Of a stretch of 64,000 nt of DNA, positions 220 through 16,598 are shown in pieces. The notes below the pieces were generated by a model. It was not told the DNA's origin and did not search any database. It saw only the letters and a program-made list of their open reading frames with translations. The stretch lies in the NCBI GenBank assembly GCA_018015315.1, contig GCA_018015315.1_3629.1; one strand, given 5' to 3'. The stretch's first letter is position 1. Each line of letters begins with the position of its first letter. A program made the translations under genes and the position numbers. The DNA is from a phage.

Positions 220-2556
220 TTACCAAAGGTCGGTAGACATGAAGTTGATATCTTTATTGTTCTCCCACTCAAGTTTTGCATCAAATATTTTGTTAAACTC
301 ACCCTCATCTATTGAAATCGTGATTTTCCCATCACTGATCTCTAAAGGTAGCATTTCCATAGTTCTTAATTGAGAAGCAAAACCAGGGCCACCCGGCAAC
401 GGAAGAGTCCCGCCAGGCAAGGTGTCCAAAGGATTAACAAACCCGTTACCTCCCGATATGATATCTTTGCGAATCATATCGCTGATAGTATCCAGCTGCT
501 GATTTCTTTCACTTAGTGGGTTGTAACGGTCATTAAATAATTCCCCGGCGCTTAGTATTGTACCGATAATACCCAGCTTACCGAGCAGACCAACTTTGCC
601 ACCAGGTGTCTTGAGGCCACCTCCACCTTTTCCTGCCGGAGCTCCACCACCAGACCCTTCTGTAGTAGCGGCACCCGCTGCTCCAGCTGCACCCCTTAGA
701 GAGTTAAGGAATTTAAAGGTTTTTACAAGCATGGATGCCATGACAAAACCTTTTGTTAGGGCGTTGACTACCAGCATGATGGCAGCAGCAAACCCTGCCC
801 ATTTAGCATAGCTAAAGGTGTCATGAAGCTCTTCAGAATATTCCTTCGTCTTAGCTGTTATGAATCCCCATTTAATCCCCCATTCAAGGAAAAACATGCG
901 GATCTTGACTATAGTGTTGTTTAGTTCACCAACTACCCAGTTAAGGCCTCTCACAAACCCGCTAACAAAATCACCAGAGGCATCCCACACAAATTGCAGA
1001 GTCTCACCAGTGCGGATTAGTGTATAATAGAACTCTGTTAGTTCGTCAGACCAACGGGTGAACAGTTTCTGACGAGTCAGTTCGATGAAGGTTTTCAGTC
1101 TGTTTTCTGCCAGCACGTTAGACTTCTGCATTCTTTCATAACCAGCTGCAGATGCCTCGTTCATGTACTTAGCCACATACTTCATGATCTTGGCTGTTTT
1201 AACCTCACCTTTCTTCATCATGTCCATGAACTGATCCATGGAGAGTTCAGAAAGACCAAAAGCCTCTTTGGTGGCCTTGATAAAAGGTTCGTATGCACCA
1301 GGCAATGCTTCAGCAAGTTGTTGCTTCAGTTCTTCGGACATTACTTGTCCCTTGCCAAGCATCTGTTGGATTGCCATAATACCGCGCTGGTATTTTACCT
1401 CATCGGCACCATAAGCAGCAGCATACTGGGAGTATGCAGAAAACAGCTCATGCACTTCCTGATTTGTCATCTGGTTTTTGGCGTTTACCGACATCTGGGC
1501 GTAACCTTGAAGACCAGATTTGAGATCAAAACCAAGACGCATAGCCTCTTGCTGGACAAACGCAACCTCACTGTTAGCTTTGTTTGGATCTCCAGTAACA
1601 GCTGTAAGAGCAGCACTTGCCCCCTCCATCATGTGACCGGATCTGTTAACCGCAGCAAATCCAGAAAAAGCCGTATACGCAGCTGTTGCATTAATAACAG
1701 ATCTACGTAGGTCTCTCATGGCATCGCCTAGTGTAAGCGTTTGGCTGGTGGCGCTTTTAAACCCAGACTGCAGCGCTGACAGGTGGGCGTTAAAGGTTGA
1801 CTTCTTCATCTCCCCGCGAGCAAACCTGGACTCTAACTCTGAGTATCCTGGCAAGCTTCCACGGAATCCGGCCCCATACTTGGCAGAAAGTCTTATCGCT
1901 GAGTTGTAGAGGTGGGTTCTCCTTGCCTCACGATCCGACATAAGCCTATTATCCATACCAGCTTTACTGTCTCTTCTTAGCTGTCTATGATAACGATTCA
2001 TAGCGGCTGTCTGAGCTTTCACAAGGTTAGGGTCGGAAGCCACACCACCCATATTAGGGTTACCGGGGATATATTTGAAAGATTTGGCATTAGCCAAAAC
2101 TCTTGCCTTAGGTGCCTTATAACCACCGTAAGACACTGGTGCAGATTTGGCAGCCTTTTTGGCCTCTTTAGCTTGCTGCTGGTAGAACTTACGCATCCTA
2201 GCCATTTCTGGATTTTTAGCGGTAAGATTACCTACAGCTTGTTTACGTCTCGCATTCTCCCTACGTTCTATTGCAGCCCTTACTGCAGCCTCTTTCTTGG
2301 CCTGTGCTACGCTCTCTCTGTGCAGTTTAGCATTTGCCTGAGATTGCTGTCTGGCAACCCTCTGCATTGTCTGCTGGGTTTTAACAGCTACCGCCTGCCA
2401 TCTACTCATGGGGTTGGATGAGTTAAAATCCTCGCCCAGTTTCCTGAACTCCCTCCCAATACTGCGAATTTTCTCTACAGCTTTTTTGTAGGAGGAGTTC
2501 TCTATCTCAAAGCCAATCTTGTTGACTGTTGTGGCAACTATTTTGTTTGTAGCCAT
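220..2556 (-). CDS. tail tape measure protein
   Basis: 778 aa; Ala/Lys/Gln-rich coiled-coil N-half, Gly-rich segment near C-terminus; sits after sheath, tube and chaperone genes. Confidence 0.6.
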   Translation of the reverse strand: MATNKIVATTVNKIGFEIENSSYKKAVEKIRSIGREFRKLGEDFNSSNPMSRWQAVAVKTQQTMQRVARQQSQANAKLHRESVAQAKKEAAVRAAIERRENARRKQAVGNLTAKNPEMARMRKFYQQQAKEAKKAAKSAPVSYGGYKAPKARVLANAKSFKYIPGNPNMGGVASDPNLVKAQTAAMNRYHRQLRRDSKAGMDNRLMSDREARRTHLYNSAIRLSAKYGAGFRGSLPGYSELESRFARGEMKKSTFNAHLSALQSGFKSATSQTLTLGDAMRDLRRSVINATAAYTAFSGFAAVNRSGHMMEGASAALTAVTGDPNKANSEVAFVQQEAMRLGFDLKSGLQGYAQMSVNAKNQMTNQEVHELFSAYSQYAAAYGADEVKYQRGIMAIQQMLGKGQVMSEELKQQLAEALPGAYEPFIKATKEAFGLSELSMDQFMDMMKKGEVKTAKIMKYVAKYMNEASAAGYERMQKSNVLAENRLKTFIELTRQKLFTRWSDELTEFYYTLIRTGETLQFVWDASGDFVSGFVRGLNWVVGELNNTIVKIRMFFLEWGIKWGFITAKTKEYSEELHDTFSYAKWAGFAAAIMLVVNALTKGFVMASMLVKTFKFLNSLRGAAGAAGAATTEGSGGGAPAGKGGGGLKTPGGKVGLLGKLGIIGTILSAGELFNDRYNPLSERNQQLDTISDMIRKDIISGGNGFVNPLDTLPGGTLPLPGGPGFASQLRTMEMLPLEISDGKITISIDEGEFNKIFDAKLEWENNKDINFMSTDLW

Positions 2557-2610
2557 GGTTTCCTCATAATAAAAAGGGCCAGATCCCAGAAAAGGAATCC
2601 GGCCCTTAGA

Positions 2611-2859
2611 TTATCCTCTCCTGCGCTTAGCTTTCGCAGCAGCTGCGGCAGCCTTCTGCTCCCGCTCCATTTCCCTGTTTTGGACGGTATCTAGGAATTC
2701 TTCAATATCAAGATACTCACAGAGCTTCAGGAAATACGCCATATCTGCAAGATTTAGCGATTCAAAATTTTCCCCTTTGAAATTCTTGAGCACCCTGCAC
2801 CAAAGAAAGTCGAACCAGTTGAGTGAACTGTTCTTGGCTGCCCACTCACTGGCCCTCAC
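2611..2859 (-). CDS. tail assembly chaperone extension ORF (possible -1 frameshift product)
   Basis: 82-codon frame, -1 relative to upstream 2871-3344 ORF and open across its stop; GTG start; position as lambda G/GT. Confidence 0.35.
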   Translation of the reverse strand: MRASEWAAKNSSLNWFDFLWCRVLKNFKGENFESLNLADMAYFLKLCEYLDIEEFLDTVQNREMEREQKAAAAAAKAKRRRG

Positions 2860-2870
2860 AACAACCTTGC

Positions 2871-3344
2871 TTATTCCTGCTCTTCCGGAGTCTGATCCAG
2901 GTTGTTCACCTGCTGAATCATACCCATCTGCTGTAACATCTCCAGAAGGCTTCCTAAACCGTCTTGTGTGAAAAAACAGCCGTAGTTAACCTCCAGAACC
3001 TTACCTGCCAGCTTAATCATCTCCAGCAGATGCCCCGCAAACACAACATCCGGGTTAAGCTTATCCACACCATCTACGGTAATATCTTCGAACAAGATTT
3101 TAAATAGCTCTTCAATAGAGTTATCATCAAGTTCTTGGAACAGGTAAGCCAGAGCAGTAGGAAGGACCTCTGCCATGTTCTGACCGCCTGAGATAATAGA
3201 TCCACCGATAGCACCTAGCGGGACAGCCACAATCTTACCGATTTTAGGCATGTTTTTCATTGCTTTCATCGGTCCCCAATGGGTGATCACAAAGTTGTGC
3301 CCTGCTAAATCAATCTCTGTTGTAGGTCTAAAGTTTATAGCCAT
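2871..3344 (-). CDS. putative tail assembly chaperone
   Basis: 157 aa acidic protein between tail tube and tape measure genes. Confidence 0.4.
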   Translation of the reverse strand: MAINFRPTTEIDLAGHNFVITHWGPMKAMKNMPKIGKIVAVPLGAIGGSIISGGQNMAEVLPTALAYLFQELDDNSIEELFKILFEDITVDGVDKLNPDVVFAGHLLEMIKLAGKVLEVNYGCFFTQDGLGSLLEMLQQMGMIQQVNNLDQTPEEQE

Positions 3345-3505
3345 TTTATAGCATCCTTATTAGTCATGTTGTGCACCATATTTGTGTATTTTACCATGAT
3401 TAGGGTGCATTGTCAATTTAACCTTTCAAGCAATTCAAGAACGTGTGTCAAAACCATAAAAGCAAAAAGCCCCACCCGAAGGTGAGGCTTATGCTAAAGT
3501 TGCCC

Positions 3506-3979
3506 TTAGATAATACCTGCAAGACCTGCTAGGCCAGTAAGAGCACCAGTGATGTTATCACGGTTGAGCCATGCATCCAGAATACCGATATCCCAGTCCA
3601 GTTGACCTACTTCGGTTCCGTAAGTCAGGTCAGGCTGTTTCTGGATCCAACCGATTGTGGAAATACCAGGACCCTGGCTACCTTCCAGCAGAACCGGGAA
3701 GAATACCAGACCAGTAATCGATGCCTGTTTCTGCCAGTCAGAAAGGTAAGCGTTCCATACAGAAGTGTTCTGCAAAGATACAGTCATAACACCAGATTGG
3801 TTACGAGACAGGGCCGCAGACATTTCGCCATCCACACCAACGTGAGGGTAGATGTTGTCTTCGTTTCTTGAAACAACGATCTTGGTGTCAGCAGCGAAGC
3901 CAGTGACACGCTGCTGCATCAGGTACAGTTTGACCTTTTTAGGATCATAAGCATAAGGAGTTAAAATTTGAGTTTCCAT
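3506..3979 (-). CDS. tail tube protein
   Basis: 157 aa ORF immediately downstream of sheath gene; high-expression codon usage. Confidence 0.5.
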   Translation of the reverse strand: METQILTPYAYDPKKVKLYLMQQRVTGFAADTKIVVSRNEDNIYPHVGVDGEMSAALSRNQSGVMTVSLQNTSVWNAYLSDWQKQASITGLVFFPVLLEGSQGPGISTIGWIQKQPDLTYGTEVGQLDWDIGILDAWLNRDNITGALTGLAGLAGII

Positions 3980-15782: not shown

Positions 15783-15859
15783 TGGTCTCCACGGAGTGAT
15801 TCGAACACTCGACCTCCTGATCCCAAATCAGGCGCTCTACCAAGCTGAGCTACGCGGAG
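15783..15859 (-). tRNA. tRNA-Pro (anticodon TGG)
   Basis: cloverleaf by eye: 7-bp acceptor stem (one G-T), anticodon loop TTTGGGA, T-loop TTCGAAT, encoded CCA. Confidence 0.8.
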
Positions 15860-15870
15860 TATTTACTATT

Positions 15871-15945
15871 TGGTGGCCCTGGGTGGAATTGAACCACCGT
15901 CTGGCGATTATGAGTCGCTTGCTTGAACCTTCCAGCTACAGGGCC
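15871..15945 (-). tRNA. tRNA-Met (anticodon CAT; initiator, elongator or Ile-lysidine not distinguishable)
   Basis: perfect 7-bp acceptor GGCCCTG/CAGGGCC, loop CTCATAA, T-loop TTCAATT, encoded CCA. Confidence 0.8.
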
Positions 15946-15946
15946 T

Positions 15947-16022
15947 TGGTGCTGATGGCAGGACTTGAACCTGCAACATATTGATTACAAATCAATTGCA
16001 CTACCAATTGTGCTACATCAGC
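15947..16022 (-). tRNA. tRNA-Thr (anticodon TGT)
   Basis: acceptor GCTGATG/CATCAGC, anticodon loop TTTGTAA, T-loop TTCAAGT, encoded CCA. Confidence 0.8.
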
Positions 16023-16029
16023 AAAAAGG

Positions 16030-16126
16030 TGCTAGGTGATGGAATCGAACCATCTATGTATTCAACGACTACCTCGTCTATTTTCAGGATTAAAAATCCT
16101 CGCCCTTGCCAAAGGGCTTACCTAGC
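16030..16126 (-). tRNA. atypical type-II tRNA-like gene (Leu-like scaffold, apparent anticodon TTT)
   Basis: perfect acceptor GCTAGGT/ACCTAGC, D-arm, perfect T-arm GATGG-TTCGATT-CCATC, discriminator A; anticodon hairpin AGGATTTTTAATCCT; about 30-nt variable region with GACGA/TCGTT hairpin; CCA not encoded. Confidence 0.45.
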
Positions 16127-16224
16127 TCAGTATGTTGACCATGTTGCTAGTCGGCGATGACGACTGTAACATTTGATAATCCGGTTCTGCTTCCGGCTTT
16201 CGCTTAATTACAAGGTCAACAATG

Positions 16225-16315
16225 TGGCAGAGGATAATGGAATCGAACCATCATCGAGTCATCCTCAACGGGACGGTTTTCAAGACCGCTTGAGCACCAT
16301 TGCTCCCTACCCTCT
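16225..16315 (-). tRNA. tRNA-Ser (anticodon TGA)
   Basis: type-II: acceptor AGAGGGT/ATCCTCT, anticodon loop CTTGAAA, about 20-nt variable arm, discriminator G, encoded CCA. Confidence 0.7.
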
Positions 16316-16432
16316 TTTATTATAAACAATACTGATAATGACACTGATTTTCGAGCAGTTAGTGACTAGTATAAACGACGATAAATACCAATGCCATTAT
16401 CTGTATGATTTATGCATCTAAAAATATAAATT

Positions 16433-16519
16433 TGGTGGGGAGTGGTGGAGTCGAACCACCCGAGTCGCAATGACAATAGATTTACAGTCTACACCGCTAC
16501 CTCTACGGGATAACTCCCC
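16433..16519 (-). tRNA. tRNA-Tyr (anticodon GTA)
   Basis: type-II: acceptor GGGGAGT/ACTCCCC, anticodon loop CTGTAAA, long variable arm, discriminator A, encoded CCA. Confidence 0.8.
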
Positions 16520-16523
16520 AATT

Positions 16524-16598
16524 TGGCACCCCGTACTGGACTCGAACCAGTGTCAACGGCTTAGAAGGCCGCTGCTTTATCCACTAAGCTAACAGGGC
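16524..16598 (-). tRNA. tRNA-Arg (anticodon TCT)
   Basis: anticodon stem-loop GCGGC-CTTCTAA-GCCGT, T-arm ACTGG-TTCGAGT-CCAGT, acceptor with two G-T pairs, encoded CCA. Confidence 0.75.

Follow-up and report, generated by a model that had tools for sequence, protein, structure and literature searches.

The DNA analyzed here is a 64,000-nucleotide stretch of a phage genome (contig GCA_018015315.1_3629.1 of GenBank assembly GCA_018015315.1; hereafter the window), 99.7% identical at the DNA level to the rV5-like Escherichia phages of the genus Vequintavirus. On its minus strand, a tail assembly chaperone gene is followed by a small open reading frame (ORF) in another frame, and the locus raises the question of whether these are two genes or a single gene that is read in two ways. 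We favor the second answer, with a probability of roughly 0.88: a programmed -1 ribosomal frameshift yields two tail assembly chaperones from one start codon, a short form (G) and a long fusion (GT). That a G-T fusion is made by recoding at positions 2976-2970 is very probable from the sequences compared, and that the recoding is ribosomal rather than transcriptional is likely, if held a little less firmly. An earlier sequence-only reading of the window had tentatively proposed a -1 frameshift of the lambda G/GT type, and the proposal is now supported by the chaperone family, a slippery heptamer, its conservation, its frozen synonymous sites and the lack of a conserved start codon for the second ORF.

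Overlapping frames and the slippery heptamer

The two ORFs given by the sequence-only reading, 2611-2859 (82 amino acids) and 2871-3344 (157 amino acids), are both present on the minus strand, with 3344-2871 upstream. The smaller one is indeed in the -1 frame, its codons starting at 0 mod 3 against 2 mod 3 for the chaperone. The -1 frame is open for 124 codons, from 2985 to the stop at 2613-2611, and 37 of these precede the chaperone stop, in agreement with the earlier count of at least 30 open codons upstream. The same reading had found no canonical slippery heptamer by eye; a search for slippery sites did find one, an in-phase T_TTT_TTC at 2976-2970. The features on which the argument depends are as follows.

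3344-2871, minus strand: tail assembly chaperone, short form G; 157 amino acids, 17.3 kDa, zero frame, TAA stop at 2873-2871
2988-2986, minus strand: last stop codon (TAA) of the -1 frame, which is open from 2985
2976-2970, minus strand: slippery heptamer T_TTT_TTC, X_XXY_YYZ in the phase of G (Cys123 TGT, Phe124 TTT, Phe125 TTC)
2970-2875, minus strand: predicted transframe linker HTRRFRKPSGDVTADGYDSAGEQPGSDSGRAG in the -1 frame; Gly/Ser/Asp-rich, overlapping the 3' end of G, and of different length in different lineages
2874-2611, minus strand: conserved C-terminal T domain, ISKVVVRASEWAAKNSSLNWFDFLWCRVLK...RRRG and the stop, defined by a 14-phage alignment and by phrog_10409
2859-2611, minus strand: small ORF as usually annotated (82 amino acids, GTG start, "hypothetical protein"), read here as the 3' part of the GT coding sequence

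Around the site, the minus strand reads GGC TGT TTT TTC ACA. The heptamer lies three codons past the opening of the -1 frame, the shift point falls 32 codons before the G stop, and T_TTT_TTC is the only in-phase X_XXY_YYZ heptamer in the whole gene; other slip sites were sought in the overlap of the window, and none is in phase. A +1 or -2 shift was rejected as well, the +1 frame across the G stop being open for 19 codons in the window and for 6 to 63 codons in the relatives, without conservation.

The upstream gene is a tail assembly chaperone, as the earlier reading had assumed; its position between the tube and tape measure genes and two family matches show this. Its 157-amino-acid product matches Pfam PF21822, Phage_TAC_15, with 83.6 bits (cut-off 22) and an E value of 2.3e-23 over positions 2-125 of the 127 in the model, and phrog_3840, tail assembly chaperone, at 5.4e-69. 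The 82-amino-acid ORF matches only phrog_10409 (9.6e-51), an 82-residue family of unknown function, and the T domain matches no Pfam family at E <= 0.1. The T domain starts on the chaperone stop codon itself, upstream of the annotated GTG at 2859. The predicted fusion GT has 244 amino acids (27.1 kDa) and consists of chaperone residues 1-125, HTRRFRKPSGDVTADGYDSAGEQPGSDSGRAG and ISKVVVRASEWAAKNSSLNWFDF...RRRG; its predicted specific tryptic peptide, which spans the change of frame, is VLEVNYGCFFHTR, and the C-terminal peptide specific to G is VLEVNYGCFFTQDGLGSLLEMLQQMGMIQQVNNLDQTPEEQE.

Structure prediction is in keeping with this division. In the AlphaFold 2 (AF2) model of the chaperone (mean predicted local distance difference test score, pLDDT, 67.7), a folded domain extends to about residue 126 and is followed by a low-confidence tail (residues 127-157). 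Because the modeled domain ends at the slip site, the predicted G and GT products would diverge exactly at the folded-domain end. The single-sequence AF2 model of the -1 product, which was used qualitatively only (mean pLDDT 53, residues 1-35 below 50), fits a linker of 35 disordered residues that leads into helices, and a sequence search of the PDB with the T part gave no match. For the chaperone itself, the best profile match was PDB 5ir0, over its full length at E = 0.13, and the same entry was the best Foldseek match of the AF2 model (probability 0.97, TM 0.61 on the target). It is ORF19, of unknown function, from a phage-inducible chromosomal island (PICI)-like element of Vibrio cholerae O1. 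The match was too weak to use, and 5ir0 was rejected as a structural relative of G; on this weak evidence, a phage-parasitic PICI-like element might encode a chaperone-like protein.

Conservation of the site and of the open frame

The comparison covered 62 loci, namely the window, 13 loci from annotated GenBank phages and 48 loci from IMG/VR. The GenBank loci come from Seunavirus (GAP31, PVP-SE1 and others), Henunavirus, Mydovirus, Certrevirus CR3, the unclassified A73 and ABPH49, Phapecoctavirus phAPEC8, Justusliebigvirus alia and KP2025. After removal of duplicates, 50 unique sequences remained, which form 15 clusters with less than 80% amino-acid identity and represent several genera and two subfamilies. 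Amino-acid identity to the window falls to 28-30% among these related loci. All 62 loci and all 50 unique sequences nevertheless share T_TTT_TTC at one and the same Phe-Phe, which a conserved V-N-Y-G-x motif precedes. In 62 of 62 loci, the -1 frame is also open from before the heptamer, and it closes 82-92 codons past the chaperone stop, apart from one locus that is ended by the contig edge.

The codons of the site are frozen where the choice of codon elsewhere is free. Phe124 is TTT and Phe125 is TTC in 15 of 15 clusters, and codon 123 always ends in T, whichever of TGT, CCT, AGT or TCT it is. As controls, Phe18 is TTT in 7 clusters and TTC in 8, and Phe102 is TTC in 10 and TTT in 5; these randomized codons indicate that synonymous sites are otherwise saturated. 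Measured in 5-codon windows, third-position entropy reaches its gene-wide minimum at residues 120-125, with 0.38 bits against a median of 1.61. The comparison of sequences is decisive, in that conservation of the predicted slip site across relatives exceeds chance.

A second line of evidence concerns the start codon of the small ORF. In an alignment of the -1 products of 14 phages, an FF(H/R/Q)xxRFR stretch that is dual-coded with the chaperone tail is followed by a variable Gly/Ser/Asp-rich linker and then by a conserved domain, from about (I/V)SKVV / AxExA...SLxW(F/Y)(D/E). The conserved ISKVV block straddles the G stop codon and is located upstream of the GTG. The distance from the heptamer to LxW ranges from 39 to 58 codons across lineages and is always in frame, while the first ATG, GTG or TTG of the -1 frame is found anywhere between 17 codons ahead of the LxW motif and 27 codons past it. 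In some lineages, the first possible start even falls inside the conserved domain (residue 86 of the -1 product in Mydo, residue 70 in pEp_SNUABM_01). Because no start codon is conserved, the domain predicted from these alignments is reachable only from the chaperone start by way of a -1 shift. Public records reflect the same variability: the ORF is given as a separate hypothetical protein, omitted or split in two, and the annotated starts differ, with ORFs of 132, 156, 243 and 267 nucleotides. The split occurs in MiataMamis (PP925834.1), where an intact -1-frame ORF is annotated as two hypothetical proteins; the split had suggested a stop codon, but with the frame intact it was judged to be an annotation artifact.

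Lineage-specific variants of the site were also observed. The phi92/phAPEC8-like phages (Stephanstirmvirinae) carry C_CCT_TTT_TTC, in which C_CCT_TTT and T_TTT_TTC overlap in phase. The first of these, one codon upstream in the phi92-like phages, was considered as a further slip site and rejected, since it is absent from the other lineages. In Stephanstirmvirinae, the chaperone stop is 22 codons past the site, compared with 31-36 codons in Vequintavirinae.

More distant phages carry the same arrangement or a substitute for it. Felix O1-like contigs from IMG/VR have T_TTT_TTC at the homologous Phe-Phe in 23 of 23 cases, with 13 zero-frame and 94 -1-frame codons downstream, and Aeromonas phage 4_L372D has the same heptamer and architecture. 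The comparison shows that the same putative slippery heptamer has been retained at the same codon since before the divergence of these subfamilies. In Barbavirus (Rheinheimera phage Barba18A, NC_048189.1), the chaperone has no T-run and its motif is HYGCLTSGKSF; a few codons downstream is G_GGA_AAG, the heptamer of lambda, and the -1 frame is open into the next ORF. Barbavirus has, on this sequence, swapped its putative slip site yet kept the predicted recoding.

One Felixounavirus record differs at the run itself. In Escherichia phage CL1 (OK040806.1, locus 874-1515), the T-run at 1230 has seven residues (T7) and not six (T6), and the locus is annotated as an in-frame 213-amino-acid "tape measure chaperone", which amounts to G and T fused. 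The likeliest origin of the additional T is a sequencing error in the homopolymer or a mutant; the record shows the long form reading through continuously.

Proposed ribosomal frameshifting and its alternatives

Under the proposed mechanism, most ribosomes would translate 3344-2871 into the 157-amino-acid G. A minority would slip back by 1 nucleotide at U_UUU_UUC (2976-2970). At that moment, the P site would hold peptidyl-tRNA-Phe paired to codon 124 (UUU) and the A site aminoacyl-tRNA-Phe paired to codon 125 (UUC), and both tRNAs would re-pair on UUU UUU. The slipped ribosomes would resume in the -1 frame with CAC (His) and end at the stop at 2613-2611. The expected product is the 244-amino-acid GT, in which G residues 1-125 are joined through a flexible linker rich in Gly and Ser to a conserved, helical C-terminal domain. 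In lambda, the domain common to gpG and gpGT binds the tape measure, and the T domain of gpGT recruits tube protein (PMC5009743). If the window phage follows lambda, the N-terminal domain shared by G and GT would coat the product of the adjacent downstream tape measure gene, and the tube protein, recruited by the T domain of the rare GT, would begin to polymerize on the tape measure. Production of the fusion, its share and its binding partners are inferred for the window phage, and the share is probably a few per cent.

Several observations weigh against this interpretation. GT is known here from sequence alone, as a predicted protein. A database of 5.8 billion proteins holds no annotated or naturally in-frame version of it: a search with the 244-amino-acid fusion gave none that spanned both halves, and all 73 matches (149-159 amino acids) covered the G half only. 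The 15 clusters are phylogenetically non-independent, so the naive binomial probability for the frozen slip-site codons, 1e-9 or lower, is overstated because of shared ancestry. One of the two peptide patterns used to fetch IMG/VR loci covered NYG[CP]F, which biases the amino acids sampled and not the synonymous sites. The GTG at 2859 has a weak AAGG 6-9 nucleotides upstream and could start an 82-amino-acid product. Furthermore, no conserved downstream structure was found: folding of the 90 nucleotides after the slip site does not exceed that of shuffled sequences (z = -0.8), RNAalifold detects 0 conserved pairs downstream of the site in 11 diverged sequences, separate folds of 15 lineages give z values of -2.6 to +1.7 with no consistent downstream hairpin, and an Rfam scan of 2400-3600 at E <= 1 returns only two sub-threshold, irrelevant matches. 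Finally, a heptamer in the overlap of one sequence is weak evidence, with a chance expectation of 10-20%. The in-frame heptamer rate of 0.0027 per codon, taken from 45 long ORFs of the window, gives P of about 0.09 for at least one in 37 codons, and codon shuffles of the chaperone gene place an in-phase heptamer in the overlap with P of 0.20; TTTTTTC is not enriched in the window either (17 observed against 21.9 expected).

The last of these figures are what an accidental heptamer in an accidental overlap, with no function, would predict. Across the relatives, such a chance arrangement is excluded because the site and the open frame are invariant in 15 diverged clusters, down to the lowest amino-acid identities, while other synonymous sites are randomized, and its likelihood is next to nil. 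A more substantial alternative holds that there are two independent genes, the small ORF initiating at GTG 2859 (82 amino acids, 9.7 kDa), with the overlap and the heptamer being incidental. It agrees with current annotation, since every public record examined has a separate hypothetical protein or nothing, and PHROGs keeps the small ORF as a family of its own, phrog_10409. However, GTG 2859 is not conserved, and in other genera the first start lies deep in the conserved domain; two separate genes would leave unexplained the conserved residues upstream of the GTG and across the G stop, the frame that stays open from the heptamer in every locus despite linker indels, and the frozen synonymous sites of the heptamer. 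We consider this explanation very improbable, and independent initiation at GTG 2859 may occur alongside the frameshift in the window phage.

Transcriptional slippage is the alternative closest to the preferred reading, as RNA polymerase adding an extra U on the T6 run at 2976-2971 would produce mRNAs that encode the same 244-amino-acid fusion, with an identical protein sequence (Cys-Phe-Phe-His...). The conserved element is a homopolymer run, a downstream RNA stimulator was not found, and, for T4-like phages, Vladimirov et al. (2022, as cited in PMC12846349) have proposed that the chaperones arise by a non-ribosomal mechanism; in the CL1 record, a one-base change in the run gives the long form. 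On the other hand, all 50 unique loci have T6, which falls short of the roughly 8-9 or more A/T residues at which slippage by bacterial RNA polymerase becomes efficient (PMC5009743). With a seventh T, G would keep Phe-Phe and slippage would be favored, yet position 7 is C in 50 of 50 unique loci; the caveat is that the extra T would also change the next -1-frame codon (a stop in phi92-like phages). Moreover, the T-run is always in the exact X_XXY_YYZ phase, the substitute in Barbavirus (G_GGA_AAG) is non-homopolymeric and a classical ribosomal slip site, and the T7 form occurs in 0 IMG/VR contigs against 23 with T6. Polymerase slippage as the source of the fusion is therefore improbable in our view, and a ribosomal shift is preferred.

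How a ribosomal shift would be stimulated at this site is a further question. The earlier reading had suggested a search for slippery sites and for downstream structure; the slippery site was there, and a conserved structure was not, nor was a dnaX-type stem-loop or pseudoknot found 5-9 nucleotides downstream of the heptamer. The lambda G/GT shift needs no strong downstream structure, and because it works without one, the missing structure is, by analogy, no objection to a frameshift here. A candidate stimulator lies on the other side of the site.

2994-2990, minus strand: Shine-Dalgarno-like GGAGG, 13 nucleotides upstream of the heptamer; candidate dnaX-type stimulator, putative function

The duplex of GGAGG with the 16S 3' end has an energy of -10 kcal/mol, which ranks among the top 3% of the gene's windows. 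Glu118 is GAG in 11 of the 12 clusters that bear Glu, against a GAA:GAG ratio of 120:49 elsewhere in these genes (naive P = 1e-5), and Asn120 is AAC in 15 of 15 clusters. Since the -1 frame is untranslated upstream of the slip site, this synonymous constraint at codons 118 and 120 points to a possible cis-acting signal, such as a dnaX-type Shine-Dalgarno stimulator. In the CR3-like, L037 and A73 lineages, the Shine-Dalgarno-like element is weak or missing altogether.

A broader proposal concerns what drives the shift at this one ancient U_UUU_UUC site after V-N-Y-G-x, kept across Vequintavirinae, Stephanstirmvirinae, Plateaulakevirus and the Felix O1-like phages: an upstream cis-element may do so in place of a downstream structure, or U insertion by RNA polymerase on T6 may make part of the long form. 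The candidate upstream elements are GAGG/GGAGG 12-13 nucleotides upstream and the invariant AAC-TAY-GG. This proposal is doubtful as it stands; if true, the site would be a natural and readily manipulated system in which to study, in E. coli, how frameshifting is stimulated independently of structure.

Known systems, genomic setting and annotation

The locus resembles lambda gpG/gpGT in being a gene pair directly upstream of the tape measure gene, with a shared N-terminal part and an added C-terminal domain. In contrast, lambda is a siphovirus with the slip site G_GGA_AAG, whereas the window phage is a contractile-tailed myovirus with U_UUU_UUC. The G of the window belongs to Phage_TAC_15, another Pfam chaperone family than that of lambda, and the comparison draws on established knowledge and not on the lambda sequence. 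The lambda gpG/gpGT chaperones, reportedly described by Levin, Hendrix and Casjens in 1993 and by Xu, Hendrix and Duda in 2004, are a textbook phenomenon. Likenesses to P2 E/E+E' and T7 gene 10A/10B (G_GUU_UUC), drawn from general background and not from sequence homology, lie in the -1 shift, the U-rich heptamer, tRNA-Phe and the enterobacterial hosts. E/E+E' of P2, which lies between the tube and tape measure genes, is the classical case from a myovirus, and the T7 shift is in a capsid gene. Additionally, the E. coli dnaX site has an internal Shine-Dalgarno-like sequence that stimulates -1 slippage from 10-14 nucleotides upstream of the heptamer, a range in which the GGAGG of the window falls; dnaX combines A_AAA_AAG with a strong downstream hairpin and shifts at about 50%, whereas the window phage has no conserved hairpin and its Shine-Dalgarno-like element varies between lineages.

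The most recent parallel was described in December 2025, as a -1 TAC-N/TAC-NC frameshift in the Pakpunavirus phage Adele, in Vandenendeviridae (56 alleles) and in Andersonviridae (231 genomes) (PMC12846349). In those phages, every genome keeps an open -1 frame, GTTTTT, a conserved poly-T motif, marks the 3' end of TAC-N, and the downstream ORF is routinely mis-annotated as a hypothetical protein (PMC12846349). Vandenendeviridae and Andersonviridae are related to Vequintavirinae and Stephanstirmvirinae, and the chaperone loci of the latter two subfamilies were not analyzed in that study (PMC12846349). The window shares with the Adele type a related lytic myovirus lineage, a tube protein of the KPP10_Orf10 family and the same mis-annotation, and the heptamer of the Felix O1-like contigs confirms the link. 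It differs with respect to the GTTTTT motif, as the base before the run is C in the phi92/phAPEC8-like phages (CCC_TTT_TTC), so that the G lies outside the conserved core. Among the papers searched, none links rV5, PVP-SE1, phi92 or phAPEC8 to a chaperone frameshift, and the article on the rV5 genome and proteome contains no mention of a frameshift or of a chaperone.

In the window, the minus-strand tail module is ordered as sheath, tube, chaperone, small ORF and tape measure, with the following further features.

5366-3990, minus strand: tail sheath gene; 458 amino acids, DUF3383, phrog_205 tail sheath at 2e-118
3979-3506, minus strand: tail tube gene; 157 amino acids, Pfam KPP10_Orf10, phrog_280, "tail tube protein" in public annotation
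3490-3467, minus strand: terminator-like hairpin after the tube gene, a sequence pattern
3388-3416, minus strand: sigma-70-like promoter 5' of the chaperone gene; TTGACA, 17 nucleotides, TAAAAT and a TG extension, 11 of 12 consensus matches; a pattern match with putative function
2574-2607, minus strand: terminator-like hairpin and T-run in the gap that separates the GT stop from the tape measure start, a sequence pattern
2556-220, minus strand: tape measure protein gene; 778 amino acids, Pfam TMP_3, phrog_5255, directly downstream of GT

Putative transcription signals flank the chaperone gene, with a hairpin after the tube gene, a near-consensus extended -10 promoter and a second hairpin before the tape measure gene, and some related records (EdH4, Gotham) annotate a terminator between the GT stop and the tape measure. 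This bracketing suggests separate tuning of the tube, chaperone and tape measure levels. Elsewhere in the window, a cluster of seven tRNA genes at 15783-16598 on the minus strand comprises Pro, Met, Thr, Ser, Tyr, Arg and one odd gene, and the window has no tRNA-Phe gene. The odd gene (16028-16126, 97-99 nucleotides) is given a 4-base anticodon (atcc) by ARAGORN and matches the Rfam tRNA model with 37.5 bits (cut-off 29); it could have an enlarged anticodon loop or a long variable arm, or be a mis-parse.

Two further observations concern the public records. About 20 unannotated "Campylobacter jejuni phage" records within GenBank MG065644-MG065689 (Campylobacter phage A147, A141, C2, D1 and others) are 99-100% identical at the locus to E. 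coli rV5-like or phi92-like phages, and their Campylobacter host label looks doubtful. Salmonella phage vB_Sen_SG_WM_RUS_R7 (PQ002170.1) is filed under Demerecviridae and has a Seunavirus-like tail locus.

A joined (frameshifted) coding sequence is absent from all the public records inspected. More than 100 rV5-like genomes and several hundred related genomes of Vequintavirinae and Stephanstirmvirinae carry the chaperone together with a "hypothetical protein", with inconsistent starts, or a blank. The coordinates and the heptamer given here allow uniform re-annotation as tail assembly chaperones G and GT, in a group of phages that is common in biocontrol and therapy collections against E. coli, Salmonella and Klebsiella. 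The frameshift is previously unannotated but ordinary, and its main value is the correction of annotation. It is expected biology that opens no new question, and it adds one more large clade of contractile-tailed phages to those that carry the conserved tail chaperone frameshift.

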